Shown in pieces: positions 192 to 49,122 of a DNA stretch of 64,000 bases. Each line of letters starts with the position of its first letter. Within the stretch, counting starts at the first letter, position 1. Origin of the DNA: Patella caerulea (lineage: Eukaryota); NCBI GenBank assembly GCA_036850965.1, contig JAZGQO010000014.1, positions 6,726,208 to 6,790,207 of the forward strand. The letters are read 5' to 3'. The position numbers were made by a program, and so were the translations under genes. A model generated the notes under the pieces. The model searched no databases, was not told the DNA's origin, and worked only from the letters and a program-made list of their open reading frames with translations.

Positions 192-712
192 TTTATACAC
201 CCACATGGAATTGTGGTCGTATATTGTCGTCACTCTTTCTGTCAGTCTGTCTGTCGTCCACAATTTCTTTGTGAACACTCTAGAGGCTAAAGTTAATATC
301 CGATTGACTTTAAATTTAAACATAGTGTTTAAGACAAAGAAACCTATTGATTTTCGGCAATATTCATTAATTACTGCCAGAGTTATAACCCTTGATCACT
401 TTGAAAAATCTTGTGAACGCTCTAGGGGCTAAAGTTAATATCCGATTGACTTTAAATTTATATACAGTGTTTAACGTCATGAGACAAAGAAGCCTATTGA
501 TTTTCAGCGATATCTGATGATTTTGGCCAGAGTTATGGCCCTTGATTTCTGATAATTAGTTAATGGGCTATTACTCGTAATAAGATTTTCATGTGTTGTA
601 AACGTTCTCCTTACTGACAAAAGAAAAAATATGCGACAACCCTTGCTGACTGCCCAGACGACTTAGCTGTTGTACACATGTTTCATTGCCTGGTAACCTA
701 TCTTTTCTCACC
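192..712 (+). mobile_element. MITE-like composite element (family A). Head tatacacccacatggaattgtggtcgtatattgtcgtc, two internal units of about 150 bp, tail of about 150 bp ending cattgcctggtaacctatctttt
   Basis: Head, unit and tail are homologous to the other copies (4215..8760, 45241..47124, 34936..37167). Confidence 0.7.
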
Positions 713-1689
713 TCTTTATTTGTTTCAATTTCCATGGCAACTTCGGGAGATTGTATCACTTGTTTACTACTCTCCACTTTGTCTGTGTCGAAGCTAATAG
801 TGTCAAATGTTTTTTTAGAACTAATTTGTTTCGTTTTATTGGATGATGGTGATAATTTATCGATGTCATTGGTTAACTTCTCAATTTTCTCGGCTTCATT
901 CAAGTTTTTGGTAGAATTTAATTTGATCACTTTTTTGTCAAAATTGATACAAGATGGTGGAGGTTTTAATCTATTGGCTGATGGACTTCCTGAAGGTGTT
1001 ATAAGCAGAGATTCTGTTGACAGCCTTTTTCTATGAATAGAAACAATAAATATTGGTCAATAATGTGATCGTTTTCTTCTTTGACCTGTTAGTTTGTTTC
1101 AGGTTTCATAAAAAAATGGGTATATTTCATACATTTAAAGTGTTTCTTCTCGTAGTGATCTGGACAAACTCTTAAAAAGTAGAAATTTTCACAAAATAAA
1201 TTATATAATCAGATATAATATACAACCTCATCTATATTTTGAATTTTTTAATACAACCAAGAAAGATCTTACTAATCAACTATTAGGGCTTGAATACTTT
1301 TAATATAAATTTATGTTTGTAAAGAAATATAAATAAAGAATAAAGTCAATAAAGTATTACTTTTTTGGTAGGTCTTCATCAGTGGTACTGGTATTGACGA
1401 ATCTTCGCTTTTTGGCTTTCAGAATTTGCTTTTTCGTCATTTCTCGTCCACGTCGGTTTAATTTATATTTACGTTGTGGAAGAGGTAGAATATATTGATA
1501 ATATAAATTCAGTAATTCTTCTTTATCTAAAGACTGTATGTTCGTTTTTGGGATGTATCGCTTCAATAGAAAATCATAAATAAAAACTTTATAATTTCAA
1601 TTACACATAGTAAAGATGATAAAGAGAGGCTGCCAGGCAATAAAACATTTAACATGTCCCCACAAACAACTTTGTTTTCCAGAGAACAG

Positions 1690-2170: not shown

Positions 2171-4655
2171 TTCAAACATAATAATATTGTAATATATCAA
2201 CCGGGTCACTTGATTTAGTCTGATTTGGTAACCTGATCGGCGTGCACCTTGTACAAACTGGCTCGTCTATCGACGGACAAATCAAGCAGGCCCAATGAGT
2301 TACAGACTTAAGTTAAGCTACTTAAAATAAAGTTTAAAGGAACTAACTAAAAAGATTAAGAAGGACCATCTAATCTATCTGATGGCATGGCCATCAAGGC
2401 ATCATCACGACATCATGATCATGAACTTTAGTAAACACACACACAAAATATACAATTCTCTACGCTTCCGTTCATTAAATATAATTATTTTGTTTCAAAT
2501 GTCTTTTTGCCATTGATCTTACCTGATGCAAAACCTTAATTAATGCATCGCTTGATAATAATTCTGGATACAATAAATCATAATCAGAGCTGTTGTGATC
2601 TGTGGGCGCAGCCATTTTGTTGACAATTTTTTAACGATAGAGGGCAGCAGAGTTCAGGTATACACTTTATTGTAGCGTTCATGGGCGCTTATTTGTACCA
2701 ATTAGCAATATTATCTACTATCATAGATACCTTTTAGGCCCATTTGTTTTAAACAGATTGTACATATTTAAAAGATAATACACAGCTGTAATAAAAATAA
2801 CATTAAAAAGTATCGTTTTATACATCAAATTATTATAATTTTTAATTTATGGTTTTGTATTTCTATTATTTGCACCAACGCGTACTTTAATCAAGTAAAA
2901 CCAATTGCATTGTACTCGATTAATCAGACCATATTATTATCTATGACCAGACCAGATCAACCCTATAACAACTGAGTTGACTCATGTGATATATTTAGCT
3001 TGCCATTAATTTTGTTTTTGTCAGCAAAATACTGCAATGAAGAAATTGACTGACAAAAGTGACAACTATATATATATAACTGAACAGTTTATCTGAAGGC
3101 AGACCTAAACATTTACAGCGGTTAAACTTGACAGACTAGAGGAATTCATCATTGATTCAATCAAGGAACAGGAATCCTACTACTGAAGTTCTTCTGCTCT
3201 GCTCTATTAGTATTAGTATCACTGATATATATTTTTTAAAGAGTAAGTTGTTTTTTCCTAGTTTGGATTTCTATAGTCTATGTTCAATTAAAGGGACAAT
3301 CCCGATAAGAACAGAGTCTCAAAAATTAAAGTCCGAGTATTTATAAAATTTATAGACCAAAATATAGTGGCATGGTGTATTTATCTTGTCTCAAAATTTC
3401 AGCTCAAAATATTGAGTCGTTTGGATGTGAACGTCAACACTGCTAACCCTTTTAAGATTTCGGGTCAATTTTTTCATTGGGTGACATGATAATCGATTAA
3501 TGTTTCTTGAGAGTACAGTGAATGACCCATGCCCTGTACTTGATAAAAAAAAGGTTAATTTCACCTACATATTATTTTTATATAAAAAAAGTCTGGTTTT
3601 ATCCAGGTACTGTATAATAAAACGTTCTCCATTTCAAGATGAAGACTGTCAGGTCTAAGTTATTTACAAGCGTATCACTAATTTCGGGTTAGTAGGTGGA
3701 CCTTAGGTTATGGATTTTAAAGGATTTTAACACAAAATTATGCAGTTTTATTCCCCAAAAAGTTATCGGGATTGGCACTTTAAGGTACACATATGATTTA
3801 AAAAGTCTCTGTCTTACTCAACATCATCCAAAGTCTTCCATATTTGAAAACACAAATTATTTGTCAATTTATTTTAAATCAACATGGATGTTGTGATCTT
3901 AGAGCGGGAAAAAGATGGGCGTCTGATATCAAATAAACATTTTACTATTGGTACATGTACATATTAATCGTGTACCATAATTAACATTTTGAGCTAAAGC
4001 TAAGCAGAGCTAAGCAATTTCATTGGTCAATGCTTTTGTACAAGATAATCTTAAATCAATTCTATCTGATAGAGAGGGATGAAACTTAGTCAAGTTAGTG
4101 TACAGTTTGATTGCTCAATACTTTTGAAAAAAATAAATGTGAGATTAATAATTAATATGTGTCATCTATTCATTGTGGGATTTCGGAGGGGGACACCAAC
4201 CAAACTGTTGGCTTTTTTATACGCCCACAATGAAATGTGGTCGTATATTGTCGTCGCCCCTGTCGGTCCCCCCGTCGGTCCGTCGGTCTGGCGTCCACAA
4301 TTGCTTGTGGACGCTCTACAGACTAAAGTTAATATCCGATTGACTTTAAATTTATACAAAGTGTTTAAGGTCATGAGACGAAGAAGCCTATTGTTTTTCA
4401 GCGATTTCCGATAATAACTACCAGAGTTATGGCCCTTGATCACTTCAAAAAATCTTGTGGATGCTCTAGAGGCCAAAGTTAATATCCGATTGACTTTAAA
4501 TTTATACACAGTGTTTAAGTTCATGAGACGAAGAAGCCTATTAATTTTCAGCGATTTCCGATAATTAGTGCCAGAGTTATGACCCTTGATCACTTAAACA
4601 AATCTTGTGGACGCTCTAGAGGCCAAAGTTAATATACAATTGACTTTAAATTTAT

Positions 4656-7539
4656 GGGTAATTATCTCATGGGTATGCAAAGTTGAATGTTTTTGTGTCA
4701 CTCAGGTTTTTTTCTGCTATTTTTCGTTAATCTTAAAATTTAAACATATTGTATTCAACTCATCTTTATTTTTACACTAAATTCAACAAAGAAATTAAGA
4801 TTTATTTAATATTAACATATTTTATGAGTATCAGACATAGGAGAATGAGTGCCTATGGGTATGATTTTTAATGTCACTAACACTACATGTAATTTTAAGA
4901 TTGGTCTTTCCTATACTGATTAAAAAGATAATCAATCCAATCAGGGTGAATAATCACCTACCAGGACTATTGTTAGCTATGATATACAACAGAGTCGTTG
5001 GGTGTGGTTGTATAATCCTTAAAATTCAAATTTTAAATTGTCACTCTCAAAATGCTCAACACCGTAACACTAACAGTTTTCCCGCGGTAAAAATTAACTA
5101 TAGAGGCGTGGGTGACTTCACTACGTGTCATCGGCCATCTATGTCAGTCTGGTCTGGGCCTGCTAGAAAAAAGCTCTCTCAACATCATAGATTTACAGGT
5201 AAATCCAATCAAAGTTCTAAATTTGCTTGCGTGTATTAATTCATAATCAACACCGTAACGCAGTTTTCTTTCATTTATACCCGATTGGATCAGAAACAAT
5301 GTATATATTTGAATTTAGAATGGTGTACGGATACCTGACGTACACTAACGGCGTTTCTCGCACATGCGCTCTTGGTTCAAAACATCATAAACCACGTCGT
5401 TCTCAACACCGTAACGCTCAACTCCGTAACGTTAACTTTTGTTACGGTGTTGAGAAACCGTTAGGGTATTGAGGTTTGGTTCACTAATGCTTAAATTAAA
5501 TCTTATATTATTATCAACATAATTATGTAGAACAAGATGGAGTTCCTTTAACATAACGCTATATGTTAAACAACCAATAAGCGATGATACAATCAATAAA
5601 AAATAATAATAGGGAGTCTTATAATGGACTAAAATCCACATCACAATGGCGAAAGGCTTATAGAGCAATATTCATATCTACAACAATTACATATAATTAA
5701 CACTTTCATTTCAGAATGACCCCGAGTGCTAAAGAACGGGCACAAAGATACAAAGATAAGAAAAAGGCCGAATTTCTGCCCACTAATAATTCCTTCGAAG
5801 ATCAAAAGGTGTATGAGATTGTGAGAAGATATCGGACAAATAATAATAAAAAATTGATTGCCACAAGATAAGAGAACGCGAAAGAAAAACAGAAAAAGTC
5901 TGTATTACTATGTTTTTATAAGGTATAGAAGGAATAAAAACATGGGAATGTACGAACTATTTCTATTTTCCTCGTGTTCTCTTATCTAATGACACTCAAT
6001 TACTTTATTAAATTGTCAGATATCCTCTTGCAGTCCCATAATAACAACTTTTGGTCTTCGAAGGAGTTATTAGTGAGCAGAAATTCTGCTGTGTATCTGT
6101 AATCACTCTTCACTTCTGTCAGTTATATAGAGGGATAACTCGTGTTTTCCTTTTGCGTTCGTCATTTCCCAAACATCCATTGTTCATCTATCGTAGTAAT
6201 GATCTCCATGTTAACATTAGATTTGAAATGTATTTAACCAGTTCTATCACTGACTGACACCAATATCATCCATTATCTATGATAACCTTACTTGGGCATA
6301 ATTAAAAACGCAGACGAAGACGGGGTTGAAGTGTCTACCATGCAACCCATTGGCATAAATAAACTTATCTGGCCATCTCAACTTGATAGGCCTATCACAT
6401 GGTATGAATATACCAAAGTAATAAGTCTCGTTCGTGAACCAAAACAAATCAGCACCAGGCGTGAGATTTTTTAAAATAGATAGAGAGGTTTGGGCTGAAG
6501 TTGCAAAACTATATTAAAAACAACTCAATTGATTGGTAAGATCATATCCAACAGTACATGTGTTCGTGATAAAATGTTCAATAAATTACTTGTTCTTGAA
6601 AGGTTAATATATCAAAATGGCTATCGCAAATATTTTTGACTTAAGAAGAAAACTGCTCTGTAAACATATTTGTTTTACAATGTTCAGCGTTACTGTTTGT
6701 TATAAAATGAAATCATTAAGTTCAACGCCCTACTGGGCTAATAAAGATGGCCATGCATCTATTCTTATTTGATGCTAACTGACATGGGTTCTTTTGGTGT
6801 GAAAGCCAATAAATACACGAGAACTCGGTTTTCCATCCCATCCGAATGACTTGCAAGTCACCGTGGCTCTCCTGTGTGTTATATAAACCTACCAATTTAA
6901 AAGTACCCCCTCTGGTTATTATTATTTTTTTAAAAAAATTGTTATAAGGGCATATGTTATCTCAGCACCGTCACGAAAGTCAACACCGTCACGGCAATTC
7001 AACACCGTCACAGCGGGCAAAAATCACTCATTGCTACTGTTTTTAAGTTAAGTAACCATTTTATGGGCGGGCAGAAATATTAGTTGACCAATTTGTGCTA
7101 CTCAAATCAAGAAATCAAATGCAAAATCATTTCTTTTACTGAGATAAACTAAAATACAATTACCAAAAATTGTGTGAATTGAGGCCAGTGGTACAAACTA
7201 CAAATTACAACAAAGAAATTATACCGGTACAAAATGAAATATTATTTTTGAACTGTAATCCAGGTTGTCTTTTCACACAGGTAAATGTTTTCGCGTTTTC
7301 TAGTTGATTTAACACATTTTTTTGCCTATACAATACCGTTACGGTGTTGAGATTTTGTAACGCACGATCCACTAAAAGCTAAAATTTTTGTGTTAAAATT
7401 CTAAAGACTGCATGGCAATTCATAACGTACGACGTAGAAGATACTAGTTGTTGAAATGGTGTCAAAAATATATTGGTTCGAGATGGTTCAAGAATCCGGA
7501 ACATAAATTCCATGATTGCACACTCATGAGATAATTACC
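4656..7539 (+). mobile_element. Non-autonomous DNA transposon (2884 bp) with perfect 16-bp TIRs GGGTAATTATCTCATG / CATGAGATAATTACCC and a 4-bp TSD TTAT
   Basis: It interrupts a satellite monomer between aaatTTAT and TTATacacag. The empty site is reconstructable from neighbouring monomers. It holds at least 8 copies of the 13-mer CAACACCGTAACG in both orientations (5046, 5246, 5401/5441, 6964/6981/7000, 7326). No transposase-like ORF is present. Confidence 0.75.
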
Positions 7540-7540
7540 C

Positions 7541-8460
7541 TTATACACAGTGTTTAAGGTCATGAGACGAAGAAGCCTATTGATTTTCAGCGATTTCCGA
7601 TAATAAGTGCCAGAGTTATGGCCCTTGATCACTTCAAAAAATCTTGTGGACGCTCTAGAGGCCAAAGTTAATATCCGATTTACTTTAAATTTATACACAG
7701 TGTTTAAGGTCATGAGACGAAGAATCCTATTGATTTTCAGCGATTTCCAAAAATTAGTGCCAGAGTTATGGCCCTTGATCACTTAAAAAAATCCTGCGGA
7801 CGCTCTAGAGGCCAAAGTTAATATCCGATTTACTTTAAATTTATACACAGTGTTTAAGGTCTTGAGACGAAGAATCCTATTGATTTTCAGCGATTTCCAA
7901 AAATTAGTGCCAGAGTTATGGCCCTTGATCACTTAAAAAAATCCTGCGGACGCTCTAGAGGCCAAAGTTAATATCCGATTGACTTTAAATTTATACACAG
8001 TGTCTAAGGTCATGAGACGAAGAAGCCTTTTGATTTTCAGCAATTTATGATAATTACTGCCAGAGTTATGGCCCTTGATGACTTCAAAAAATCTTGTGGA
8101 TGCTCTAGAGGCCAAAGTTAATATCCGATTGACTTCAAATTTATACATAGTGTTTACAGTCATGAGACTAAGTCATCTATCGATTTTCAGTGATTTTCAA
8201 TAATTGCTGCCAGAGTTATTGCCCTTGATCACTTCGAAAAAATCCTGTGGAAGCTCTAGAGGCCAAAGTTAATATCCGATCGACTTTAAATTAACACACA
8301 GTGTTTAGGGTCATGAGACGAAGAAGCCTATTGATTTTCAGAGATTTCAAATAATTATTGCCAGAGTTATCTCCCTTGATAACTTCAAAAAATCTTGTTA
8401 CGCTATAGAGGCCAAACTTATCATCCGATTGACTTTAGATTGATACACAGAGTTTAAGGT
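7541..8460 (+). repeat. Tandem satellite array, about 150 bp monomer x6 (inside the family-A element)
   Basis: The block cagtgtttaaggtcatgagacgaagaagcctattgattttcagcgatttcc...ctagaggccaaagttaatatccgattgactttaaatttataca recurs with a period of 150-151 bp. Confidence 0.9.
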
Positions 8461-9019
8461 GTTGAAATGAACAAGTATTTTGATTTTCAATGAATTTTGA
8501 TAACTGAACAGCTAAATCCATGATATTAAATGTTTCATGTATATACTAATTGTTAGCATGGGGTAACACTTTATAAAAAGCAATCAAATTCTAATGATTT
8601 TCTGATAATTACATAATGAGCTGTTACTCTTAATCAGTTTTTAGTGTATTACAAATGTTTCATTAGCAAAAAAAGCAAAAATATGTGACAACCCTTGTTG
8701 ACTGCCCGGACGATTTAGCTGCTGTGGGCGTATGTTTCGTTGCCTGGCAACCTATCTTTAATATAATAATTTGTTATAATATTTTATTCAACTTATTTAT
8801 ATAGCGCCAGATCATGTCTGAAATAGCTGCTCTATGGCACTTTTGCAATATATTTGAAAGTAAGAATCTAAAGTAAAAAAAAAAAAAACAAACAAAAAAA
8901 CCCAATAACATATAAAAGACATGTGAAAGCATTTAGAGAAATTTAAAAAAATGTTAAAAAAATGTTAAGAGGAAAGCAAACTAATAATCAATTAAATGAG
9001 CTTTAATAAATAATTCTAT

Positions 9020-9330
9020 TATAAAGGAACTAAATCGCTCACATTAATCTAGAAATTGACACAAGTGGGTCGCAACGCATATAGGCTATTACTGTAATAT
9101 GAATGTATACAAACTGATTTACATTCACCGGCTTCCGTTTTCACTCTAATTTCAAATCAGTTATGCTTTGCGAAATAAGCCAACAGTCTCAATCGAATGC
9201 AAATTTCTAGCATCTGGTTATTCCAGTCTACATACGCAGTTTGATTTGGTGCAATGTTTCTAGTCTCGTTCCTGGCGTCTCTTGCTAGAACTGGGACTGA
9301 AACGCATTATGGTGTAAGCTTACACGATTC
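9020..9330 (+). repeat. Dispersed repeat family D (ctagaaattgacacaagtgggtcgcaac...tcaatcgaatgcaaatttctag). Copies also at 32450-32690 and 44035-44110
   Basis: Three copies with about 85-90 percent identity over shared segments. Unclassified SINE or MITE. Confidence 0.6.
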
Positions 9331-9820
9331 GTGTACCAATGGTACACTGTTTATTTTGTCTTAAATATTGGATATCAGAAGCCCACCTTTTTCAGGTAAG
9401 ATCACAGCATCAATTTTGATTTAAATTGATAAATAATTTGTGTTTTCAATGTTGAAAATTTTGGATGATATTGAGTTAGAGACTTAGTAAAAATACTAAA
9501 GCTTGAACTAATTTTTGTGGTGAGGGACAAATCATTCCAAAGTTTAAGAGCTTCCACTGAGATAGACTGTTCGTCAAATAGAGATCTGGATTTTGGAATG
9601 TTAAGTAGGTGTTAATTTATGGAATATAGTTGACACGAGGGTGCTTACTTTGTTAAAAGATCAAATAGAGATCCAGGACAACATATATAGAACCTTCATT
9701 GATTATGCAGTTTGATTTCCTTGTGTTATTTTCAATTATCTATTAAGATGTTTATAAAGAATTTGTTTTATTTTTACAGATTTAATCCCCCCCCCCTCAA
9801 AAATCAGTACAAAATTTATA

Positions 9821-10148
9821 ATGCCAATATTTGATGGAATTCAGATTGCTTTGGATTTGAATTTCAATGTGGGATTCAAAAAGAAAACGGAAATAAAAAA
9901 GGCAGTGACTAACCATGGTGGAATTATTTCTTATATTGTTACGAGGAAGAGCAACTATGTAGTGGTTAGTGATACTGAAAAAATCGACATTTCCTCAAAG
10001 TGTAGAAATGCTATAAAGTATGGTATCCCCATTGTTTCATTGGAATTTATCTGGGAATCAATTGAAACTGGTAAAGTACTCAACCCAGAAAAGTTTATTG
10101 TTGGTAGAAAAAGCAAAGATGAAGACTTTAAGAGTGGAAAGATTTCTT
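9821..10148 (+). CDS. PARP4: PARP4-like exon 1 with start codon; BRCT domain
   Basis: ORF track 9821..10207 begins MPIFDGIQ.... IPIVSLEFIWESIETGKVL resembles the human PARP4 BRCT region (HIANPDFIWKSIREKRLL, recalled from memory). Donor GTAAGT at 10149. Exon ends in phase 1. Confidence 0.8.
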
Positions 10149-10775
10149 GTAAGTCTTGTACTATCATTTGTACTATTATAAATAGCTATTATAAATGTAT
10201 AGCCTGATAAGAGCAAACATGCTTACACACCCATACTTTGGGCAGGAGAAGCTGTTGTTGTGGCATTAGTGCACATGACTACTAAAAGGGTAGGGAGCCA
10301 CCATGGTCCATTGAGCAGCTCACTAGGCGAGTCTGGGTAATTCTACTGATAGAAATTGCTACATCATATTCATATGGTCTAAGAACTCGGATGGTATTCT
10401 CCCCAGAATCCAATGAAATCTCAACTTAAAACCTTGCCAGGGTGACTTTTAGAAGACATCATGCATTACATACCAGGCTATTACTGTTAGTGACCCTGAA
10501 TCTGTGCAATTAATGATGCAATTAGTAATTATCCTTTCACGTGTTTAACATGATATTCTGATTCCTACGGAACTAGCTATGTTTACAAAATGATAACTCT
10601 TTTTATGTTTCAACCTGTCACTCATTCTTTTAGTGCCTATGAAACAGGACTTCAACACAATGTGTGAATCTAATAATCATTAAATGATATATCATTAATA
10701 CAATGCGATTAAATTAAAGAGTAAAAATTCTACCAGTATTTGTAAAATTTTAATTTCAATGGGTTTATTTTCTAG

Positions 10776-10918
10776 CCGCATCTACAAGTCTAAATAAGGA
10801 GAAAAAGAAAAGAAAGATATTCAATATTTCTGGCAGTAAAGTCTGGAAATATAAAGATATTGATTCACCCACTTTTGATGAGGAGTCATATGAAGTTGCC
10901 AAATACTCAGCATTTTTG
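10776..10918 (+). CDS. PARP4: PARP4-like exon 2
   Basis: Acceptor ttttctAG, donor GTAAGA. Encodes ...DSPTFDEESYEVAKYSAFL, resembling human DFEVAKYNTLEK. Phase 1 in, phase 0 out, consistent with the flanking exons. Confidence 0.65.
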
Positions 10919-11145
10919 GTAAGAATTTATTACTTCTGAAACGAAGATACAGAGTTGGAAAAAGTATTTGAATCTGGTAATGTACTTCCAGAAACGTTTT
11001 TGGAGACCGTTTCATTTCAAATTTTGTAAGCTGTGAAATAAGTATAGAACTCTAGATAAAATTCAAGTTATCGTGATTTACCAATAAAATTTAATATTCT
11101 TCCAAGTTCCATTACAACAGTTAAAGCTGAGCTCTCCATATACAG

Positions 11146-12172
11146 GTACAGTAGAATCTGCATTAAGCAGCCACCCATGGGAATTTTTACGATTGGCCGC
11201 TTAACGGGAGTGGCCTCTTAATAAAATCTTGTGTTTTTTTGTGCTGACATCAATTAGTATTGCGCTTGGGTACACTTGCATCGGTAAATTTGGCCGTCGC
11301 TGAATCTCGGACGTAACTTCCGTAAACTTGTCAGTTTGTCCCAACCTTCAATACTACTGTCTATCATTGTGATGCATTCGATAATATTTATCCATTTTTG
11401 TAAAATCCCATGCTTTTTTTGTGCTGACATCAATTAATATACGCTAGAATGCATTGGAAGCAAGCACCAATACTTCACTTGCATCGGTAAATTTGGCCGT
11501 CGCTGGATCTCGGACATAACTTCTGTAAACTTGTCATTTTGTACCAACCTTCAATACTACAGTCTATTATTGTGATGTATTCGATAATATTTATACATTT
11601 TTGTGAAGAAAATCAGTGAATTAATTTTATGTTATCAAAAATAAGCACATGAACCAAAAAACATCGCTGATTTTGCTACCGATTCACAGGGGGTGTAACT
11701 CTGTATGTAATATTATAGGTGGCACTAAAACGTATATTTAACAACATAGCGGCTTTTAGTCGGTACTTTCAGTTTATTCAATCGGTATCAAATAATGTTC
11801 CGTTAAGTGTGAAAACAATGATCAGGTTAGTCGTTTAATAAAACAAAAGATTAATTAACAGATAATCCTGGGTTAATTGTTATTTTCACATTTCTTTTTA
11901 CGTGATCAATGGGAGTCCAGTTAATTGATTACTACTCACGAGATTAGCCGGGGTGTTACGAAGAACGACAAGATGGTATCATTCAACAATGGCCGTTGAA
12001 TGGGCGATGTTTTGTTAAATTTATTAGCAAAATAGTGACCGCTGGCCACGTTAGAGGAGTGGCCGTTGAATAAAGAGATGAAACAATAGAATTTTTACGG
12101 GGGGAATTTATTGTGACCGCTTACAAGGATATGTCGCTGAATAGGAGTGGCTGCTCAAACGGATTCTACTGT
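11146..12172 (+). mobile_element. MITE of about 1 kb in PARP4 intron 2, with TIRs ACAGTAGAATCTGCATTAAGCAGCCAC / GTGGCTGCTCAAACGGATTCTACTGT and subterminal GGAGTGGCC repeats
   Basis: Inverted termini at 11148-11175 and 12143-12170. The GGAGTGGCC(G/T) motif occurs 5 times. An internal tandem duplication of about 190 bp lies at 11237-11620. Confidence 0.6.
11237..11620 (+). repeat. Tandem duplication, 2 units of about 190 bp (tttttttgtgctgacatcaatta...gcatcggtaaatttggccgtcgctg.atctcggac)
   Basis: Two adjacent copies with about 90 percent identity. Confidence 0.8.
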
Positions 12173-21569: not shown

Positions 21570-23160
21570 GTGAAAACCTCACTGTCTAAGCAAAATTTCC
21601 TTCCTATGCCCATTTTTGTCCCCCGCCCTTTCGAAGAAAGTTGGGGGACTATTAAAATGGGTTCGTCCGTCCGTCTGTCTGTCCGTCTGTCTGTCTTTCA
21701 CACTTTTTGGGACACAATAACTCTCTTCCTAATTGAGCTAGAATGTTCAAACTTGGTGTATGTGTTTATTAGGTCAATGCCCTGATGGAGTTCGAAGATG
21801 AGCATTTTCCGCTTAGGGTAAGCAGAGATAAGCAATTTGATTGGTTGATGCTTTGGGACACGATAACTTTGGTTCTAATTAAGTGAGATTGATGAAACTT
21901 GGTGTATAGTTTCATTATAGTAATACCTTGACTAAGTTCGATAATGAGCATTTTCTGCTCAGGGTAAGCAGAGCTATACGCAATTTGATTGGTCGAGAAT
22001 TTGGAACACAATAACTCTCCTTCTAATTGAGTTAAAATGTTCAAACTTGGTGTATATGCTTATTAGGTCAATGCCTTGATGGAGTTCGAAGATGAGCATT
22101 TTCCGCTTAGGGTAAGCAGAGATAAGCAATTTGATTGGTTGATGCTTTGGGACACGATAACTTTAGTTCTAATTATGTGAGAGTGATGAAACTTGGTGTA
22201 TAGTTTCATTATAGTGATACCTTGACTAAGTTCGATAATGAGCATTTTCTGCTCAGGGTAAGCAGAGCGATACGCAATTTGATTGGTCGAAACTTTGGAA
22301 CACAATAACTCTCCTTCTAATTTAGTTAAAATGTTCAAACTTGGTGTATATGCTTATTAGGTCAATGCCTTGATGGAGTTCGAAGATGAGCATTTTCCGC
22401 TTAGGGTAAGCAGAGATAAGCAATTTGATTGGTTGATGCTTTGGGACATGATAAATTTAGTTCTAATTAATTGAGAGTGATGAAACTTGGTGTATAGTTT
22501 CATTACAGTAATACGTTGACTAAGTTCGATAATGAGCATTTTCTGCTCAGGGTAAGCAGAGCGATATGCAATTTGATTGGTCGAGACTTTGGAACATAAT
22601 AACTCTCCTTCTAATTTAGTTAAAATGTTCAAACTTGGTGTATATGCTTATTAGGTCAATGCCTTGATGGAGTTCGAAGATGAGCATTTTCTGCTTAGGG
22701 TAGGCAGAGATAAGCAATTTGATTGGTTGATGCTTTGAGATACGATAACTTTAGTTCTAATTAAGTGAGAGTGATGAAACTTGGTGTATAGTTTCATTAC
22801 AGTAATACCTTGACTATGATCGATAATGAGCATTTTCTCCTCAGGGTAAGCAGAGCGATAAGCAATTTGATTTGCCGAGACTTTGGAACACAATAACTCT
22901 CCTTCGAATTGAGTTAAAATGTTCAAAATTGGTGTGTATGCTTCTTAGGTCAATGCCTTGATGGAGTTCGAAGATGAGCATTTTCTTCTTACGGTAGGCA
23001 GAGATAAGCAATTTTTGGATGACACTTCGTGTTCAGTTTGATTGGTCGATACGTTTGAAGAAAATAAATGTGCAATTAATTAATATGTGTCATCTATTTA
23101 TTTTGGGATTTCGGCGGGGGACATCAGCTTCACTGTTGGCTTGTCTTAAACCCTGTTGGT
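21570..23160 (+). repeat. Satellite-bearing element in the PARP4 intron: about 5 tandem higher-order units of 294 bp (two 147-bp subunits each)
   Basis: Repeated minus-strand ORFs start at 21769, 22063, 22357 and 22651, giving an exact period of 294. Flanked by a left end with gtccgtccgtctgtctgtc and a right end (23040-23150) homologous to 4100-4214. Related monomers at 50830-51110 and 52200-52330. Confidence 0.85.
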
Positions 23161-29100: not shown

Positions 29101-31745
29101 TTTGTTGAAATTTGAAATGTAAGTTTATGAAGATCTTGCTTCCTTTCGATATTCAAGCATTTAGGACTGTAACTTCCTGAATTATGGTCCTTGATTGTAC
29201 TAAAAAACACGTTATTTGGTTTGTGTACGCTATGAGGTCACAGTTTTATTACGATTTAAAAAATTGTTTGATTATATCACCGTTACAACATAATGATGAT
29301 TGTGTTCGAATTTTGTGAAAATCGGACAGAAACTACTGGAAGAAATGTCCGCATCTCCTACAAAAACAGTGTAAAAATATGGTATATCAAGGTTGAGGAC
29401 CCTCTAAAGTTCACAATTGTGATCCAATTTTGGTGAACCTTGAAGTACATGTTTATAACCAGAAGATCTTGGTTCCTTTCAATATTTGCGCATAAATATT
29501 GCATCTTAACAAAATGATCATCCCTCCTAAGCAAATAGTGTAAATATATGGTATAACTTTGGTTGTGGACCCTCTGGAATTCACAATTTTTATGAAACTT
29601 GAAATGCATGTTTAAAACCCAAAGATCTTGGTTGTTTTTGATATTCGTGCAAATTGGATGGAAACTTCCTGAATTATGGCCCCTGATTGTATGAACTCAA
29701 CATAAATTACAGTGTAACGGTAATATAATCAGACGGTTTTATAAATCGAATAATAATTGTGACCTCTAGAGTGACCACAAGCTAAAAAAGGTGTTTTTTG
29801 GTACAATCAGAGGCCATAATTCAGGAAGTTATGATCCGATATGCACATATATTGAAAGGAGCCAAGATCTTCGGGTTATAAACATGCATTTCAAGTTTAA
29901 TCAAAATCGGTTCAAAAGTGTGACCTCTACACTGTTCACAGACTAAAAACATGATTTTACGTACAATCAGGAGCCATAATCCATGAAGTTACAGTCCGAT
30001 ACATGCCAATATAGAAAGGAGCCTAGATCTTAGGGTTATACACCTATATTTCAAGTTTCATTGAAATCAGTTAAAAATTGTGACCTGTAGTGTTCACAAA
30101 CAATTGTGGACGGACAGACGATCAAGGGCGATGACCAGAGTTGGGATTTCAAAATTTTTCGTGTCGGACATTTTACCGAAAATAAAGGGTCATAACTCTT
30201 ATCGTTATTTAAGCCGTACGTAATAAAAATTGGTGAACCTCGCTATTTTTCACACCTAATTCCCGTACGGCATTCAAATTTATGTCAGTAAATGCCGTAC
30301 AAAATTAAGCATTTTCGTAATACATTGAATGAATGCTTGCCGATCCTGCTTCAGCATAAAATTCACAACCGTAATATTCCTTTAGATTTACGTGGCAGCA
30401 AATGAATGCCGCACTTCCGAAAGAAGAATAGTTTGTGATGTCAGAACATCGTTTTTTCTTTATAAAATGTCAACAAAATATTCAAATCCGTGCGTAATAG
30501 AAATAAGAACACGGCAGCAAATTAAAAAAAGCGTTCGAAATAATACTTGTGGTGATGACAAAAGGCATAGCTGACTTCAGCGTATTGCCGCTATGGCGTA
30601 CGTGACTTACAGCACACAGCTTCATAGTAAGCACTGCCTAACATGTTAAGCAATATTCGTGCGGCGCTCGAGATCACGGGAAAGTGCCACTGTGGATGAG
30701 AATTTATATATGGATTCTTAAAAGACGTAAAGGATATCGTAGACAAAATGAATTAGGGTGTTATAAAATAATATACTGTTACGATATGTGACATCTATGA
30801 TTAGTTGATAGATGCTGTCGGCTAACATCAATGTGATTAAGATGCCCGACAATTGAAGACCACGAGGAAAACAGGTGGATTAAAATTATAATCACTCTTA
30901 TTGGATTTTCAAATAGTCTGACAAAGGGAAAGCAATGACTTCTGTTTAAGATTAGATTGATGAATTGTCCGACAAAGGATTAAGTCAATCAATCAAGGCA
31001 GATTAAGTAGTTAATCAAGGTAGGTTTATTGACGGTATAACACGATAAATACGTTGATCACTTAATTACCTAATCAATCCTGCCTATTGTCAACGATAAC
31101 CGGGTTGAGTGGTAGTTATACTCACAGTACACTATATTAATTTTGGAATTTTGAATATTATTCACTATGTCTTGATGTCCGATTGGGCATATTCCCGGTC
31201 GGACAATATTGTGCGTTTGTAAAAAAAATTCGGACAAGTCCGGAATATACGGGCGAAATCCCAACTCTGGCGATGACAATATGCATCCACATGAAATGTG
31301 TGCGTATAAAGATTCGATTTTTAGCTTGTGGGACCACAATTAAAAAACATTTTAATAGAGTTTGAAATTCGTAAGAATCGGACCAAAACTGCCAGACAAA
31401 ATGTCCGCCCCTCGTTCACAAATAGTGTAAATAAACATCTGGTGTATCAAGCTTGTGGACCCTCTAGAAGTCACAATTTTGATCCGATTATCTTTATAAC
31501 CCCAAGATCTTGGTCCTGTTGATATTCGCCTATATCTGATCGTAACATATACCTTTTGATCCGATTATCTTTATAACACCAAGATCTTGGTCCTGTTTAT
31601 ATTCGCCTATATCTGATCATAACTTATACCTGAATTATGGCCTTTGATTGTTCGAAAAATCGCTTTTTGTTTACTTTGTTCTCTATCCATCTCTTGCAAA
31701 ATGTGGGCGTATCCTGTCTGGCAGTCGCTGGTTTCTTTTAAATTT
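29100..31745. mobile_element. Composite block of family-B satellite monomers in both orientations (inversion near 29700), ending in a C-type terminal inverted repeat (31690-31745), with a nested hAT-like MITE
   Basis: B-type monomer segments (ttatggcccctgattgtacgaaaaa..., ggtcacaatttt...) lie on + at 29100-29700 and on - at 29700-30130. The reverse-complemented element head is split by an insertion at 30136-31269. The C-terminus ctctatccatctcttgcaaaatgtgggcgtatcctgtctggcagtcgc lies at 31690-31740. Confidence 0.6.
30136..31269. mobile_element. hAT-like non-autonomous element (1134 bp): TIR CAGAGTTGGGATTTC / GAAATCCCAACTCTG, 8-bp TSD GCGATGAC
   Basis: TSD copies at 30128-30135 and 31270-31277. 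Joining the flanks reconstructs the reverse-complemented family head (caagggcgatgacaatatgcatccacatgaaatgtgtgcgtata). A TIR starting CAGAG and an 8-bp TSD are hAT hallmarks. Subterminal AATGCCGTAC-like repeats are present. There is no long ORF. Confidence 0.65.
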
Positions 31746-34935: not shown

Positions 34936-37167
34936 ATACGCCCACATTTTCATGTGGACGTATATTGTCGTCGCCCCTGTTCGTCTGTCCGTCCGTCCAC
35001 AATTGTTTGTGAACAGTCTACAGGTCACAATTTTTATCCGATTTCAATGAAACTCAAAATGTAGGTTTATCACCCTAAGATCTCGGTTCCTTTCGATATT
35101 GGCATGTATCGGACTGTAACTTCTTGGGTTATGGCCCCTGATTGTACGAAAAATCATTTTTTTTAGCTTGTGAACAGTGTAGAGGTCACAATTTTGAACC
35201 GATTTGGATGAAACTTGAAATGCATGTTTATAACTTAAAAATCTTGGTTCCTTTCGATATTTGCGCCAATCGGATCGTAACTTCCTGAATTATGGCCCCT
35301 GATTGTCCGAAAAATCACCCCTTTTTAGCTTGTGGTCCCTCTGGAGGTCAAAATTGTTATCCGATTTAAAAAAACGTTTGCTTATATCACCGTTACATGG
35401 TTATGAAGGTTGAGTTCGAATTTCGTGAAAATCGGACCAAAATTGACGGACAAAATGGCCGCGGTTTGTACGCGAATAGTGTGAAAATATGTTATATCAA
35501 GGTTGTGTACCTTATAGAGGTCACAATTTTGAACCGATGTTGATGAAACTTTACATGTATGTTTATAACCCAAAGATCTTGGTTCCTTTCGATATTTGCG
35601 CCAATCGGATTGTAACTTCCTGAATTATGGCCCCTGATTGTCCAAAAAATCGCCCTTTTTAGCTTGTGGTCCCTCTGGAGGTCAAAATTGTTATCGGATT
35701 TAAAAAAACATTTGATTATGTCACCGTTCCATGGTTATGAAGGTTGAGTTCGAATTTCGTGAATATCCGACCAAAATTGACAGACAAAATGGCGGCCGTT
35801 TGTACGCGAATAGTGTGAAAATATGTTATATCAAGGTTGTGGACCTTATAGATGTCACAATTTTGAACCCATTTTGATGAAACTTGACATGTATGTTTAT
35901 AATCCAAAGATCTTGGTTCCTTTCGATATTTGCGCCCATCGGATCGTAACTTCCTGAATTATGGCCCTTTTTAGCTTGTGGTCCCTCTGGAGGTCAAAAT
36001 TGTTATCGGATTTAAAAAAACGTTTGATTATGTCACCGTTCCATGGTTATGACGGGTGAGATTGAATTTCTTGAAAATCGGACCAAAATTGACAGACAAA
36101 ATGGCCGCCTTTTGTACTCGAATAGTGTGAAAATATGATATATAAAGCTTGTGGCCCTTATAGAGGTCACAATTTTGAACCAATTTTGATGAAACTTGAC
36201 ATGTATGTTTATAACCCAAAGATCTTGGTTCTTTTCGATATTTGCGCCCATCGGATCGTAACTTCCTGAATTATGGCCCCTGATTGTCCGAAAAAGCGCC
36301 CAATTTAGCTTGTGGTCCCTCTGGAGGTCAAAATTGTTATCCGATTTAAAAACCCGTTTGATTATAACCATTCCATGGTTATGAAGGTTGAGTTCGAATT
36401 TTGTGAAAATCAGACCAAAATTGACTGACAAAATGGCCGCCGTTTGTACGCGAATAGTGTGAAAATATGTTATTATATAACGGTTGTGGACCTTACAGAG
36501 GTTACAATTTTGAACCGATTTTGATGAAACCTGACATGTATGTTTTTAACCCAAAGATCTTGGTTCCTTTCAATATATGCGCCGATCGGATCATAGCTTC
36601 CTGAATTATATCCCCTGATTGTCCAAAAAATCGCTTTTGTTAGCTTTTGGTCCCTCTGGAGGTCAAAATTATTATCCGATTTAAAAAAACGTTTGACTAT
36701 ATCACCGTTACATGGTAGTGAAGAGAGAGTTTGAATTTCGTGAAAATCGGACTAGAATTGACGGACAAAATGGCTGCCATTTGTACTCGAATAGTGTGAA
36801 AATATGTTATATCAAGCTTGTGGCCCTTATAGAGGTCACAATTTTGAACCAATTTTGATGAAACTTGACATGTATGTTTATAACCCAAAGATCTTGGTTC
36901 TTTTCGATATTTGCGCCCATCGGATCGTAACTTCCTGAATTATGGCCCCTGATTGTACGAAAAATCACCCTTTTTAGCTTGTGGTCCCTCTGGAGGTCAC
37001 AATGATTATCTGATTTAAAAAAATATTTGATTATATCACAGTTACACCGTAGTTATTAGAGTTTGAATTATGATTTTCTGATGACTACTTAAAATGCAAC
37101 AACTCTGGTTGACTGCCCGGACGATTTGGCTGCTGTGTGGGCGTATGTTTCGTTGCCTGGCAACCTA
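34936..37167 (+). mobile_element. Family-B MITE (2.2 kb). Head atacgcccacattttcatgtggacgtatattgtcgtcgcccc, about 6 higher-order units of 330 bp (two subunits of about 165 bp), tail ...gggcgtatgtttcgttgcctggcaacctattttt
   Basis: Exact boundaries come from comparison with the empty site at 32882-32893 (gttttgtttttcaaataaaaaaag). The TSD is T-rich (TTTTT, ambiguous). Monomer period is 320-337 bp, from recurrences of ccttatagaggtcacaattttgaaccgattttgatgaaacttgacatg at about 35512, 35849, 36169, 36499 and 36839. Confidence 0.85.
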
Positions 37168-40360: not shown

Positions 40361-41690
40361 GACTAGCGGCTGCCAGACAGGATACACCCACTTTTTGCAA
40401 ATATTGATAGAGAACAAGCTATTTTTATACGTCCTCATTCATAATGTGGATGTATTATGCCATCACCCCTGTCTGTGTGTGTCTGTATGTATGTGTGTGA
40501 TCCCTATTGTTTTTGGTGCATGCCCAACACCCATGGGCAGAACCATGCCCATTTCTTGTATTTGTTTGTTTGTCGCCTACAGGCCACATTCCTTAACGTA
40601 TTATTTTGAAACTTAGCTTACTAATACTTTGTACCCTAAGTAACATCCCTATCGTTTGGGGTGCATGCCCTATCCCCAGGGACAGAGCCACACCCATTTT
40701 CTTTTTGTGTGCCTCTATGTCGCTTACAGGCCACAATTTCTAAATCGATAATCTTGAAACTTTACATACTTATTCTTTATACCCTAAGGATGATCCCTAT
40801 TGTATTGGGTGTATGCCCAACCCCCTGGGACAGAGCCACACCCATTTCTTGTATTAGTTTGTTTGTCGTTTACAGGCTGCATTTCTTAACGTATCATCTT
40901 GAAACTTTGCATGCTTTTTTTTGTGCCCTAAGGAACATCCCTATCGTTTGGGGTGCATGCCCACCCCCCAGGGACAGTGCCACGCCCATTTTCTTTTTGT
41001 GTGTCAGTGTATTGACTGTGTTTTGTGTGTCTCTATGTCGCTTACAGGCCACAATTCTAAATCGATAATCTTGAAACTTTACATACTTATTCTTTATACC
41101 CTAAGGATGACCTCTATTGTATTGGGTGCATGCCCGGCCCCCTGGGACAGAGCCACGCCCATTTCTTGTATTAGTTTGTTTGTCGTTTACAGGCTGCATT
41201 TCCTAATGTTTCATCTTGAAACTTTGCATGCTTATTCTTTGTGCCCTAAGGAATATCCTTATCATTTGGGATGCGTGCCCACCCCCCAGGGACAGTGCCA
41301 CGCTCATTTTCTTTTTGTGTGTCTGTGTATTGACTACAGGCCACAATTCTTAATTGATCATCTTGAAAACATTTTTATACTTATTCTGTATACCCTAAGA
41401 CTGACCTTTATTATTTTTTGGTGCATGCCCGATCCCCTGTGACAGAGCCACGCCCAATGTTTATGTGTCTTGTGTTTTGCCTACAGAGCGTAATTCTTAA
41501 CATATCCTTTTCAAACTTTGCAAACCTATTCCATATACCCTAAGGATGACCCCTATTTTTTTTGTGATTGCCCAACTCTCAGAGTCATACCCATTTTTAC
41601 TTCGTGTCTATGTTTGTTGCCTACAGGCCTAGCGTTCTTGACAAAGTAGTATATCAATCAAAGCAGGAATGTGGACGTATATTTTAGCGT
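40361..41690 (+). mobile_element. Composite element: C-type terminal fragment (40361-40420), diverged A-type head, about 8 satellite monomers of about 155 bp (higher-order 310 bp), head-like fragment at the right end
   Basis: The unit ccctaagga.ga.ccctat.gt.t.gggtgcatgccc...gggacag.gccacgcccatttc recurs at about 40640, 40790, 40930, 41100, 41250, 41395 and 41540. ORFs 40661..41068 and 40921..41442 are repeat artefacts. Confidence 0.7.
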
Positions 41691-47124: not shown

Positions 47125-47313
47125 ACTATTATAGTGAGAACTGCCAACTCTCTTATCTCCCATAATGTATCTTTGAGCGTATATATTTACCTTGCAGTTT
47201 TTAACAGAAATATTGGGGTCATAAGACGATGAACCCTATCTATTTCTCTCTTATCCATCCATCTGTTGGAAAATGTTGGTAGTTGCATAGCAGCTGTTTG
47301 TTTTATATTAAAG

Positions 47314-49113
47314 GGGTAATGGAACTGGGAGCTGTAAGAGATAGTATAAATGAAACAGGAACAGATGATAGCATGGATATAAAAAACAAGAAAGGGGCAA
47401 AGGCAAAAAGTAAAAAAAAGAACCAAAGTATTCAACATTGGAAAGATGAGTCAGATTTGATTTCTGACTTTGAAAGGCCATTGCCAACATCAGCATTTTC
47501 ATTTGGATCAAAGCAACCAACAATTTCTGAAAATAAATCTGGATTTAGTGCAGCTACTACAAATAGTGGATTCTCTGGTTTTGGATCAACGGATTTAACA
47601 TTTGGGGTTGGTACTGGCAGTAAATTAATTGAGGAAGAACTTAAAACACCTGACCATGGTCAATTCTCTGATTTTGGATTAAAAAGGACAACAGAACCAT
47701 TATTTGAGGAAGAACCTAACTATTTTTTTCTTCGATCTAAACAGGCTGAATTCTCTGATTTTGGTTCAGAAAGGTCCAAATTTGAAGCTGATATGGATGG
47801 TGAATTATTTGGATCAAAGCAATCAATTATTTCTGAAAATAAATTTGGTTTTAGTGCAGTTACTACAAGTAGTGGATTCTCTGGTTTTGGATCAACAGGC
47901 TTAACATTTGGGGGTGGGGGTAGTAAAGTATTTGAGAAAGAACTTAAAACATCTGACCAAGGTCAGTTCTCTGATTTTGGATTAAGAAGTACAACACAAC
48001 CATTAATTTCTGAAAAGAAATCTGGATTTAGTGCAGTTACTACAAGAGACAGAGGTGGAGGTGGCAAGGTTGGTGGATCAGTTTTTGAAAAAGCTCGATT
48101 TAGTGCAGTTACTAAAAGTGATGGATTTTTCAGGACGACCACGTCAAGTCGTCAAAGTGTATTTTCTGGTTTTGGATCAACAGACTCAACTTTTGCGGGT
48201 GGTACTGGTAGTAAATTATTTGAGGAAGAACCTAAATCATCTAGATTTGATGTAGTTACTAGAAGTAATGTCAAGGAACAACAGTCTACTAATGATGTAT
48301 TTTCTGGATTTAGAGCTACACAGCATTATGTGCCACCACTACCAGCACCACTACCTTCAACACCAACACACATAGCATCAGACCAAACTTTAATTTCAAC
48401 TGCTGCTCTTCCACCCATGCCCGCTCAAATTATGGAACAGCCACCTCCAACAAAAGCAATAACTAGGACACAGCAGGCCCAGCAGGCCCAGCAGCAACAT
48501 CAATCAATGAGAACTGGTATCCATGTCCTCTCAAATACATTACCACCACCACCACCACCACCACCACCACCTGTAGCATTGCCACCACCACCACCACCTG
48601 TAGCATTGCCACCACCACCACCACCACCACAAGGAACACTACCTTCAACCATAACACCCAAATCAGATCAATATGATTGTTTCATTTCAACTGCTGCTCT
48701 AACTTTGAAACCCCAATCCAGAACAATAACTAAAGCACAAAAGCCACAGCAGCACTATCAACTTAGAGGTACCAGTATTCAGCCACCTTCTCTATCAAAA
48801 TCATTGCAACAACCTGCAGTACAATATTCTTCAACTCAATCCCCTACTGCAATACAACTCCAAAGTACACCAGTACCATCAAGTACACCACCCCCACCTA
48901 TTAATGCGCTATCTTGTAGAGGAAGATCATCAGCAACTACATCCAAAATGAAGAAATCTTCTATACCACCACCACCGCCAGTACCAGCATCTATAGATAC
49001 AGATCAGAGTTTACAACTACTAGCCCTATGCAACGCACGTGGTCCTCCATTTACTAGTAGTGAACGTTTTTTAAAAGCCCAACCAGAAGAAATACACAAT
49101 AAATTGAGTACAG
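47314..49113 (+). CDS. PARP4: PARP4-like exon 31: 1.8 kb exon encoding FG-repeat modules, a Q-rich patch and poly-Pro tracts
   Basis: Same frame as ORF 47283..49148 (621 aa). Acceptor ttttatattaaAG at 47312-13. Donor CAG|GTAACT at 49114. Phase 1 in and phase 1 out, linking exon 30 to exon 32 in frame. Holds three modules of about 100 aa each, with the pattern FGSKQ.ISENK.GFSA.TT.SGFSGFGST.LTFG.G.GSK..E.ELKT.D.GQFSDFGL. Then QQAQQAQQQHQ. Then LPPPPPPPPPPVALPPPPPPVALPPPPPPPQG. Confidence 0.55.
47480..48250 (+). repeat. Coding tandem repeat of about 300 nt x2.5 inside PARP4 exon 31 (FG-repeat modules)
   Basis: Near-identical blocks: tttggatcaaagcaaccaacaatttctgaaaataaatctggatttagtgcag... (47500) and tttggatcaaagcaatcaattatttctgaaaataaatttggttttagtgcag... 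(47800), with a partial third at 48110-48250. Confidence 0.8.
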
Positions 49114-49122
49114 GTAACTGCT

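Follow-up and report, generated by a model that had tools for sequence, protein, structure and literature searches.

What kind of DNA interrupts the satellite array at the start of this stretch, and where does it come from? The stretch, called the window throughout, is 64 kb long (contig JAZGQO010000014.1 of the limpet genome Patella caerulea, assembly GCA_036850965.1), and all positions are counted from its first letter. Between 4656 and 7540, one 150-bp satellite monomer is interrupted by an insert of 2885 bp. We conclude that this insert is best explained as a non-autonomous, internally deleted cut-and-paste (class II) transposon with terminal inverted repeats (TIRs), and assign a probability of roughly 0.8 to this reading. 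Here we describe how the insert is bounded, what remains of the gene it carried, how it compares with related families, and to which superfamily it might belong.

The satellite provides an unusually direct view of the boundaries. Tandem Repeats Finder (TRF) places the 150-bp array at 4304-4655 and, beyond the insert, at 7541-8489. An earlier note on this DNA had put the insert at 4656-7539, with a length of 2884 bp; its start holds, and its end lies one base further on. The insert terminus starts GGGTAATTATC…, and the 16-mer GGGTAATTATCTCATG occurs at 4656-4671 on the plus strand and at 7525-7540 on the minus strand. With up to three mismatches allowed, these are its only two matches in the window. 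The TIRs are perfect over the first 16 nt, as the note had described them, and the arms reach 25 nt with two mismatches (23/25 match). No direct repeat longer than 27 nt occurs in the insert, and the TIR is present at the two ends only. When the insert is removed, the joined array cut at a conserved anchor, and the monomer lengths compared, the interrupted monomer measures 154 bp and five neighbours 150 bp. The four surplus bases are TTAT, at the junction. The interrupted monomer reads AAATTTAT|TTATACACAG where neighbour monomers read AAATTTATACACAG, and the empty site can be reconstructed as …TTTAAATTTATACACAG…. The neighbours thus serve as the internal empty-site reference that had been proposed, and the target-site duplication (TSD) TTAT, previously given as 4 or possibly 3 bp, is borne out as 4 bp. 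The probability of finding 16 complementary bases at these boundaries by chance is approximately 1e-9, and that of the 4-bp repeat approximately 6e-3; because the boundaries are set independently, by the phase of the satellite, chance is not a serious explanation.

The insert contains no intact transposase-like open reading frame (ORF), as was noted earlier. Pfam searches of its ORFs (30 aa or longer) and of all six frames gave no match, nor did a word-indexed protein search with 18 joined ORFs, which missed a C-terminal domain that phmmer later found. A 122-aa ORF is not on record by exact look-up; Rfam and transfer-RNA scans of the insert are empty, and a promoter/terminator scan of it gives chance levels. 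What had been overlooked are two pieces of a pseudogene, at 5716-5895 and 6265-6508. An exhaustive phmmer search with the stop-free frame 6286-6471 (62 aa) returned 35 cluster representatives with E<=1e-3, the lowest value being 3.8e-9; they are for the most part C-terminal fragments, short and located on eukaryotic contigs. One family member, P0039 (KAK6187379.1), is an 840-aa protein of Patella caerulea itself. In tblastn, residues 757-823 of P0039 match 6265-6471 with 51% identity and 77% positives (E 2e-19), and beyond a frameshift a weak match (E 0.51) continues at 6470-6508 to residue 835. The other end of the protein is also represented: the N-terminal remnant opens at a shared initiator Met (MTPSAKERAQRYKDKKKA...; MTPSAKERAQRY in the insert against MPLTAKERAKRY in P0039) and has an in-frame stop inside. 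Both remnants are collinear and on the plus strand, and what would join them, residues 61-756 with the presumed catalytic motifs, is absent. At the deletion junction lies an internal foldback of 323 bp, the right arm of which is an inverted duplicate of the N-terminal coding stretch (124/160 aligned columns match). Folded as DNA it has an energy of -91.6 kcal/mol (z -15). We considered whether it might be a nested miniature inverted-repeat transposable element (MITE) and rejected this; no TSD flanks it, and the left arm consists of coding sequence of the transposase. Since both ends of the gene survive as decayed fragments and the middle is missing, the insert is an internal-deletion derivative with a rearranged junction, in which the pseudogenised ends of an approximately 840-aa transposase-like protein persist. 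The earlier description of the insert as a non-autonomous TIR DNA transposon stands.

P0039 has no Pfam match and no solved relative. Its 90% cluster also holds two fragments from the same species, the neighbours of P0039-family members are retroelement genes, and the family as a whole is multi-copy and distributed like a transposable element. P0039 contains the motifs IDFSEN, FQSDGPSTQYRNK and GHGKGAPDG, with approximately 85 residues between DFSEN and SDG and, as we read the sequence, a third acidic motif within approximately 40 residues of the second. The common C-terminal domain (alignment A4) reads WCVVxYDxxPYPGIIxxxDxDxVEVxxMxxIGxNRFFWPxxxDxxWYxxxxVxxxIPEP, and is predicted to form a small, five-stranded beta-barrel (predicted local distance difference test score 82). 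A Foldseek comparison of this model with the PDB gave nothing significant, the best hits being KOW domains of SPT5 at a template-modelling score of approximately 0.5. This domain, which has no Pfam family, is often called as a stand-alone small protein in metagenome assemblies (P0003-P0037, A4); the proteins so called are likely to be pieces of transposons, and not genes. Around distant relatives in three loci (L121, L122 and L123 8330-9214) there were no convincing TIRs.

Between its termini, the insert carries a second kind of repeat. When two mismatches are allowed, the 13-mer CAACACCGTAACG is found 12 times in the 64 kb, where 0.53 are expected; 11 of these occurrences lie inside the insert (the earlier note had counted at least eight, in both orientations), and none of 100 shuffles reaches 12. 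Six sites of this 13-14-bp motif (TCAACACCGTAAC) lie toward the 5' end, starting 400-805 nt from it, and four to five toward the 3' end. The palindromic pair and the triple tandem reported before are both present: the pair, at 5400-5415 and 5441-5456, is 16 nt long and 100% complementary, and the tandem, at 6962-7011, has a period of 19 and 2.7 copies by TRF. On the minus strand the 3' array has a single site, 7338-7351, which lies 189 nt from the 3' end; together with a degenerate plus-strand copy that it overlaps, at 7331-7343, it forms a palindrome. We also considered the motif pair at 5055 and 7338 as the edges of a nested inner element, and rejected it; the motif is multi-copy, and is conserved in relatives. 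The insert is rich in CpG, with an observed/expected ratio of 0.91 at 4656-7540; the ratio of the window as a whole is 0.65. Two CpGs lie in every full copy of the motif, and site conservation may explain part of the excess.

Relatives of the insert come from other genomes. Three contigs of one ENA sample (ERZ26222911) carry P0030, P0040 and P0041, which form one protein cluster, and a 3135-bp segment with sharp edges, 99% identical from copy to copy, occupies 8844-11978 in each of the loci L124, L125 and L126. This family opens GGGTCATT…, has the termini GGGTCATTTCACA…TGTGAAATGACCC, and is flanked by the TSDs ATCT, ATAT and ATAT. It, too, keeps pieces of a P0039-type protein: an N-terminal part matching residues 1-32 and 20-67, and a C-terminal part matching residues 716-837. 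The ORF of the C-terminal domain is still open in these copies (255-316 aa) and their TSDs are intact; the family has probably been active recently in its host. The 5' TIRs of the insert and of the L125 copy share GGGT (positions 1-4), ATT (6-8) and TGCAA (21-25). A third family, at L123 14896-18922, has GGGTAAAACC… termini, ATAT/AAAT flanks, and its own form of the motif, TC(A/T)ACTCCGTTAC. It is a foldback-like element of approximately 4 kb, whose inverted arms reach 487 nt at 92%, as though two like ends had fused head to head; no coding remnant was detected in it. A 4-bp TSD is a trait of the group, and it is very likely indeed that the insert arose by deletion from a TIR transposon of this group, with its GGGT.A… ends, 4-bp TSDs and TCNACNCNGTNAC motif.

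The relatives also bear on a different reading of the junction. Taken in isolation it could be parsed as TTA + T-GGG…CCC + TTA, that is, as a 3-bp duplication with a stray T; the insert would then be a PIF/Harbinger element in an AT-rich target, and the motif the binding site of its Myb-like partner. TIRs of approximately 25 bp that start with GGG are common in that superfamily. In L124 (ATCT) and L126 (ATAT), however, where termini and motif architecture are the same, only 4 bp fits among duplications of 3-5 bp. PIF/Harbinger transposases are covered by the Pfam model DDE_Tnp_4, whereas the 840 residues of P0039 match no Pfam model at all, and the six frames of the insert hold no remnant of a Myb/SANT-type ORF. 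We consider this reading highly improbable.

What the motif arrays are for is suggested by their conservation. The motif of the 3135-bp family, GTCCACTCTGTTAC, has 13 matches in its locus against 0.22 expected, all inside the element. In the L125 copy the 5' sites start at 390, 579, 735 and 750 nt on the plus strand and at 774 and 794 on the minus strand; the corresponding starts in the insert are 400, 591, 747 and 762 for the plus strand, 786 and 805 for the minus strand, a constant offset of 10-12 nt. At the 3' end, both elements have a tandem plus-strand run (period 21 in L125, 19 in the insert) and, beyond it, a single inverted site, which lies 190 nt from the terminus in L125 and 189 nt in the insert. 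The DNA around these sites is a different matter: insert and relative share one 29-bp blastn match and are otherwise unalignable, and a global alignment of their first 900 bp gives 30% identity. Even the motif has drifted, the two versions agreeing at 9/14 positions (TC.AC.C.GT.AC) and differing at 5/14. Sites with fixed positions and orientation, a motif that varies by family, and spacers that have been randomised are what would be expected of cis-acting sites for an element-encoded protein, and from their conserved positions in the 3135-bp relative we predict, as was proposed earlier, that the arrays are transposase-binding sites; no other observation favours that proposal as strongly. Alternatively, the arrays could be remnants of internal tandem repeats, or regulatory sequences of the host that came along by chance. 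The arrays are indeed partly tandem, with periods of 15 and 19, and begin 400 nt from the 5' end. But neutral leftovers would not hold position while the intervening sequence is randomised, and here the sites of two families agree in number and orientation, and in spacing to within 1-2 bp, in surroundings that no longer align, while the motif itself has changed at 5/14 positions and the third family has its own variant. We regard this alternative as quite improbable.

To which superfamily might these elements belong? The earlier note called the family uncharacterised. The TSD, the termini and the protein motifs now point to a Sola2-like placement, offered here as a lead, since 4-bp AT-rich TSDs, GRG termini and the motif pattern DF.EN/SDG/HGK..D occur together. 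Bao et al. (2009) are said to have defined Sola by its 4-bp TSD. Sola2 elements of dictyostelids have TIRs of 12-22 bp and 4-bp, AT-rich TSDs of the type AWWT (ATAT, AAAT and ATTT; PMC3627910), and Sola2 has been recorded in bivalves (PMC10294476). The dictyostelid elements DFa-2, of Dictyostelium fasciculatum, and PPa-1, of Polysphondylium (PMC3627910), resemble ours in the AT-rich TSDs of 4 bp, in short TIRs with a purine-rich 5' end, in the approximately 5 kb that we infer for the autonomous form, and in three acidic motifs, DF.EN … SDG…(F/Y)(K/R)(S/N) … HGK..D, preceded by (S/T)F…P…D.C..C. The termini of DFa-2 are 5'-GAG…CTC-3' and those of the insert GGG…CCC, a likeness drawn from one or two reference termini. 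BLASTP aligns P0039 with Sola2_DFa-2 in one collinear segment that runs over DFKEN, SDGAKHFKS and HGKSDVD (25% of 151 positions, E 0.086). The Smith-Waterman score has a z of 3.8-4.3, and is reached by 2-4 of 500 shuffles. The elements differ in that neither DFa-2 nor PPa-1 has a TIR comparable to GGGT.ATT…TGCAA, that the position-conserved TCNACNCNGTNAC arrays and the C-terminal beta-barrel appear in none of the Sola descriptions we read, and that the insert has no catalytic part of its own to compare, similarity of P0039 being marginal to DFa-2 and undetectable to PPa-1. On balance, we lean toward placing the insert in the Sola superfamily, as a Sola2-like element. A Sola1 assignment does not fit: the P0039 core scores z 1.2 against a bivalve Sola1 catalytic exon, and the termini differ, the one complete bivalve Sola1 consensus having 5'-GAC…GTC-3' ends and motifs of the type DFAQ / CDNCGGQNKN.

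The likeness to Sola2 might reflect generic spacing of catalytic motifs, in which case P0039-type elements would be a DDD lineage apart from Sola. Support from sequence for Sola2 is marginal (E 0.086) or, with PPa-1 and a two-sequence profile, absent, and the protein has no Pfam family, no solved relative, and no significant structural match for its beta-barrel. Arguing for Sola2 are the 4-bp TSD of the group, AT-rich as in the dictyostelid elements, and the single BLASTP segment that stays collinear over all three motifs. Accepted Sola groups, moreover, are no more alike in pairwise tests: the bivalve Sola1 catalytic exon gives z of -0.8 and 3.0 against the two Sola2 proteins. Repbase, too, contains numerous Sola entries from molluscs. 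We judge a lineage apart from Sola to be distinctly unlikely. A somewhat broader proposition is that P0039-type elements with GGGT.A… ends and 4-bp TSDs are a distinct, undescribed DDD lineage of molluscs and other invertebrates, either a deep branch of Sola or a separate superfamily. This, too, seems unlikely. Were it true, the lineage would be marked by the C-terminal beta-barrel together with extended TCNACNCNGTNAC arrays fixed to the base pair, and sites so fixed would mean that several proteins take up a defined arrangement at either end.

Kolobok (Kojima and Bao 2022) is another candidate superfamily. Its elements have 5'-RR…YY-3' termini, which the GG…CC of the insert fits, and TSDs of 4 bp; they are common in bivalves, where one consensus opens GGGGCTATGTCATTTTG and where a rich lineage, KolobokP, has no strong target preference and includes non-autonomous forms of 1.7-3.3 kb (PMC9587614). 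The insert might be a non-autonomous Kolobok on these grounds, but several features disagree. The Kolobok TSD is TTAA (PMC9587614), whereas the insert is flanked by TTAT, and its relatives by ATCT or ATAT. KolobokP requires long terminal direct repeats (approximately 450 or 660 bp) with short TIRs of their own, and the insert has none; nor does its TIR occur in the 228 KolobokP consensus sequences. Kolobok transposases, like those of hAT, P and MuDR, have a C/DxxH motif and, after the second D, a long insertion domain (PMC9587614); in our reading P0039 has neither. As we read the bivalve Kolobok consensus, its motifs (DGGWSKR, ADGDS and CANH) are different ones. A Kolobok origin is improbable. 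Two further candidates are disfavoured. Academ (AcademX of animals), with a 3-bp TSD, Y…R termini and 138-192 residues between its first and second catalytic D (PMC7165386), is at odds with the 4-bp TSD and G…C termini of the insert, and with the approximately 85 residues between DFSEN and SDG in P0039. The termini of the insert (GGG…CCC), its TSD (TTAT) and the failure of P0039 to match Pfam likewise speak against piggyBac. That superfamily has 5'-CCC…GGG-3' termini and duplicates TTAA.

Several observations weigh against the reading we favour. Second copies of the exact insert family were found neither in the window, nor in the metagenome collection, nor in the literature text and supplements that were searched. 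A blastn search of the rest of the window gave no second copy; the TIR has near-matches at 16455 and 54030, both 11-mers, and neither goes any further. The 25-mer TIR has 0 matches in the metagenome collection; the 16-mer has 120, all of them single chance matches on unrelated contigs without extension. A full-text literature search with TIR, motif and host-element strings returned nothing relevant, and the same strings are absent from the supplements of the KolobokP, bivalve transposable-element and Cg_HINE papers. The arrays start 400 nt from the 5' end, and the corresponding subterminal sites of Ac, En/Spm and P elements lie nearer the ends than this. The N-terminal match to P0039 is weak by itself, and the link between P0039 and the GGGT…/4-bp-TSD ends comes from deletion derivatives with terminal pieces only. 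As to superfamily, P0039 has no significant similarity to Sola2_PPa-1, and comparison with a two-sequence Sola2 profile (hhalign, hmmsearch) yielded nothing significant either. The duplications TTAT and ATCT, finally, are AT-rich but fall outside strict AWWT.

Internal deletion of this general kind has familiar examples in Ds, dSpm and the internally deleted P elements. These derivatives of Ac (hAT), En/Spm (CACTA) and P keep their ends and subterminal repeats and lose the transposase middle, as the insert has done. They, too, have rearranged or filler DNA at the junction, short motifs in both orientations set apart from the TIR, and a need for a full-length partner. They belong to other superfamilies, with TSDs of 8, 3 and 8 bp, respectively, and differ in layout: the arrays of the insert reach 800 nt inward at the 5' end and 580 nt at the 3' end, with none in the outermost 190-400 nt. 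The history of the insert can be outlined as follows. Its progenitor encoded an approximately 840-aa protein of the P0039 type, of which the first 60 or so and last 80 or so codons remain, decayed. The deletion, with its inverted duplicate, may have arisen when the gap left by an excision was wrongly repaired, perhaps through an abortive repair in which the template was switched; approximately 1 kb was kept at each end, with the 25-bp TIRs and the site arrays. Insertion was of the cut-and-paste type, with a 4-bp staggered cut at an AT-rich site within a satellite monomer of a HINE-type Helentron. As to mechanism, several transposase molecules, or a basic N-terminal region of the protein, would load onto the arrays beside each end and draw the two ends to each other. 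Bending or pairing of the ends could be aided by the inverted sites, of which the 5' array has one pair and the 3' end a single one, 190 nt in. The DNA would be cut at the GGG/CCC termini and joined to AT-rich targets through a 4-bp stagger. Such a copy would be mobile only if a full-length relative supplied the protein.

Features of the insert and of the element that hosts it, with the observations on which each is based
Feature	Position	Strand	Basis
5' terminal inverted repeat, GGGTAATTATCTCATGGGTATGCAA	4656-4680	+	TIR match and inverted-repeat search
3' terminal inverted repeat, reverse complement GGGTAATTATCTCATGAGTGTGCAA	7516-7540	-	TIR match and inverted-repeat search
TSD, left copy, TTAT	4652-4655		interrupted monomer 154 bp against 150 bp in neighbours
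TSD, right copy, TTAT	7541-7544		same monomer-length comparison
5' subterminal array, six sites, consensus CTCAACACCGTAAC	5055-5473	+ at 5055, 5246, 5402, 5417; - at 5441, 5460	motif search
3' subterminal array	6961-7351	+ at 6961, 6979, 6998 (tandem, period 19); then - at 7338-7351	motif search, TRF
Transposase N-terminal remnant, aa 1-60	5716-5895	+	tblastn of P0039; 32% identity over 60 aa, E 5e-4 (small search space)
Transposase C-terminal remnant, aa 757-835	6265-6508	+	tblastn/phmmer; two in-frame stops, one frameshift
Internal foldback (left arm 5767-5919, right arm 5934-6089)	5767-6089		inverted-repeat search
Host, left part: 5' subterminal inverted repeat (subTIR), inverted repeat, microsatellite, 2.3 monomers (4304-4655)	4213-4655	+	aligned to copy at 189-2194, TRF
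5' subTIR, ATACGCCCACA	4219-4229		substructure comparison
Complementary inverted repeat, TGTGGTCGTAT, six bases away	4236-4246		substructure comparison
GTCY-type microsatellite	4250-4300		TRF
Host, right part	7541-8778	+	6.3 monomers (7541-8489), right flank, 3' subTIR, palindrome
3' subTIR, TGTGGGCGTAT	8723-8733		substructure comparison
Palindrome, GTTGCCTGGCAAC	8739-8751		substructure comparison

The element into which the transposon inserted had been taken for a satellite-carrying MITE. HINEs, non-autonomous Helentrons of bivalves such as the Cg_HINE elements of oyster, are described as having a 5' subTIR, a complementary inverted repeat 1-12 bp away, a microsatellite, a tandem array, and a 3' subTIR with a palindrome; they insert at T-rich targets and make no TSD (PMC7492417). 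Every one of these substructures is present here (Table). A T6 run lies just before the 5' end of the host, which has no TSD, and the alignment with a second copy, at 189-2194, begins at the T-run before 4219. Judged by these substructures, the host is a HINE like Pearl and Cg_HINE, and not a classical MITE. It shares with those elements the subTIRs, the GTCY microsatellite, an array of approximately 150-170-bp units, the palindrome and a high copy number, and differs in that its 150-bp monomer and flanks match none of the strings searched in the supplements (PMC7492417). The subTIR 11-mer TGTGGGCGTAT occurs 18 times in the window with up to one mismatch, against 0.44 expected.

Elements of this type are dense in the window (4213-8778, 189-2194, 31297-31712, 34936-37146, 41670, 43916, 45245 and 58129-61336), and their subTIRs border a number of unrelated arrays of satellite, including those of 148/294 bp at 21706-23014, 161/334 bp at 35007-37043, and 145-317 bp at 40500-41562. 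The copy at 189-2194 holds approximately 1.1 kb of unrelated DNA (705-1825) between two segments that resemble the right flank, and two long, mutually overlapping antisense ORFs, at 589-930 (minus strand) and 686-1036 (plus strand), enter this DNA. Three coding regions of the window deserve mention as well. An ORF with an ATG start at 9821-10207 (plus strand) encodes a BRCT domain (Pfam BRCT_2, E 4.6e-10) and resembles a first coding exon; the host lies approximately 1 kb upstream, and HINE and nested transposon together fill 5 kb of the upstream region. A word-indexed protein search found no homologue of this ORF. The ORF at 63457-63969 (minus strand) belongs to glycosyltransferase family 92 (GT92). 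It is closest to gastropod proteins, with 44% identity to one of Pomacea canaliculata and, over 45% of the query, 58% to one of Bulinus truncatus, which places the window in a mollusc. At 47283-49148 (plus strand), an open frame of 621 aa is of low complexity; it combines Ser/Gly/Phe repeats with a run of prolines, and contains an (ACC)n stretch at 48542-48630. It has no Pfam match, and may be a large exon of a disordered protein.

As an event, what we describe is ordinary: a decayed, non-autonomous transposon nested in a Helentron-borne satellite array. Mollusc genomes are rich in DNA transposons, and nested insertions into Helentron satellite arrays are to be expected. Its use lies in what it makes visible. 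The clean empty site, together with the three copies of the relative, fixes the TSD of the group at 4 bp and reveals the true termini. To our knowledge, no Sola-type transposon has been studied biochemically or structurally. The comparison of families provides a map of likely cis-requirements—a 25-bp TIR (GGGT.ATT, TGCAA), six sites at the 5' end, and a 3' array with an inverted site 190 nt in—that could guide the design of minimal ends, and of binding assays, if the element became a tool or a subject of mechanistic study.

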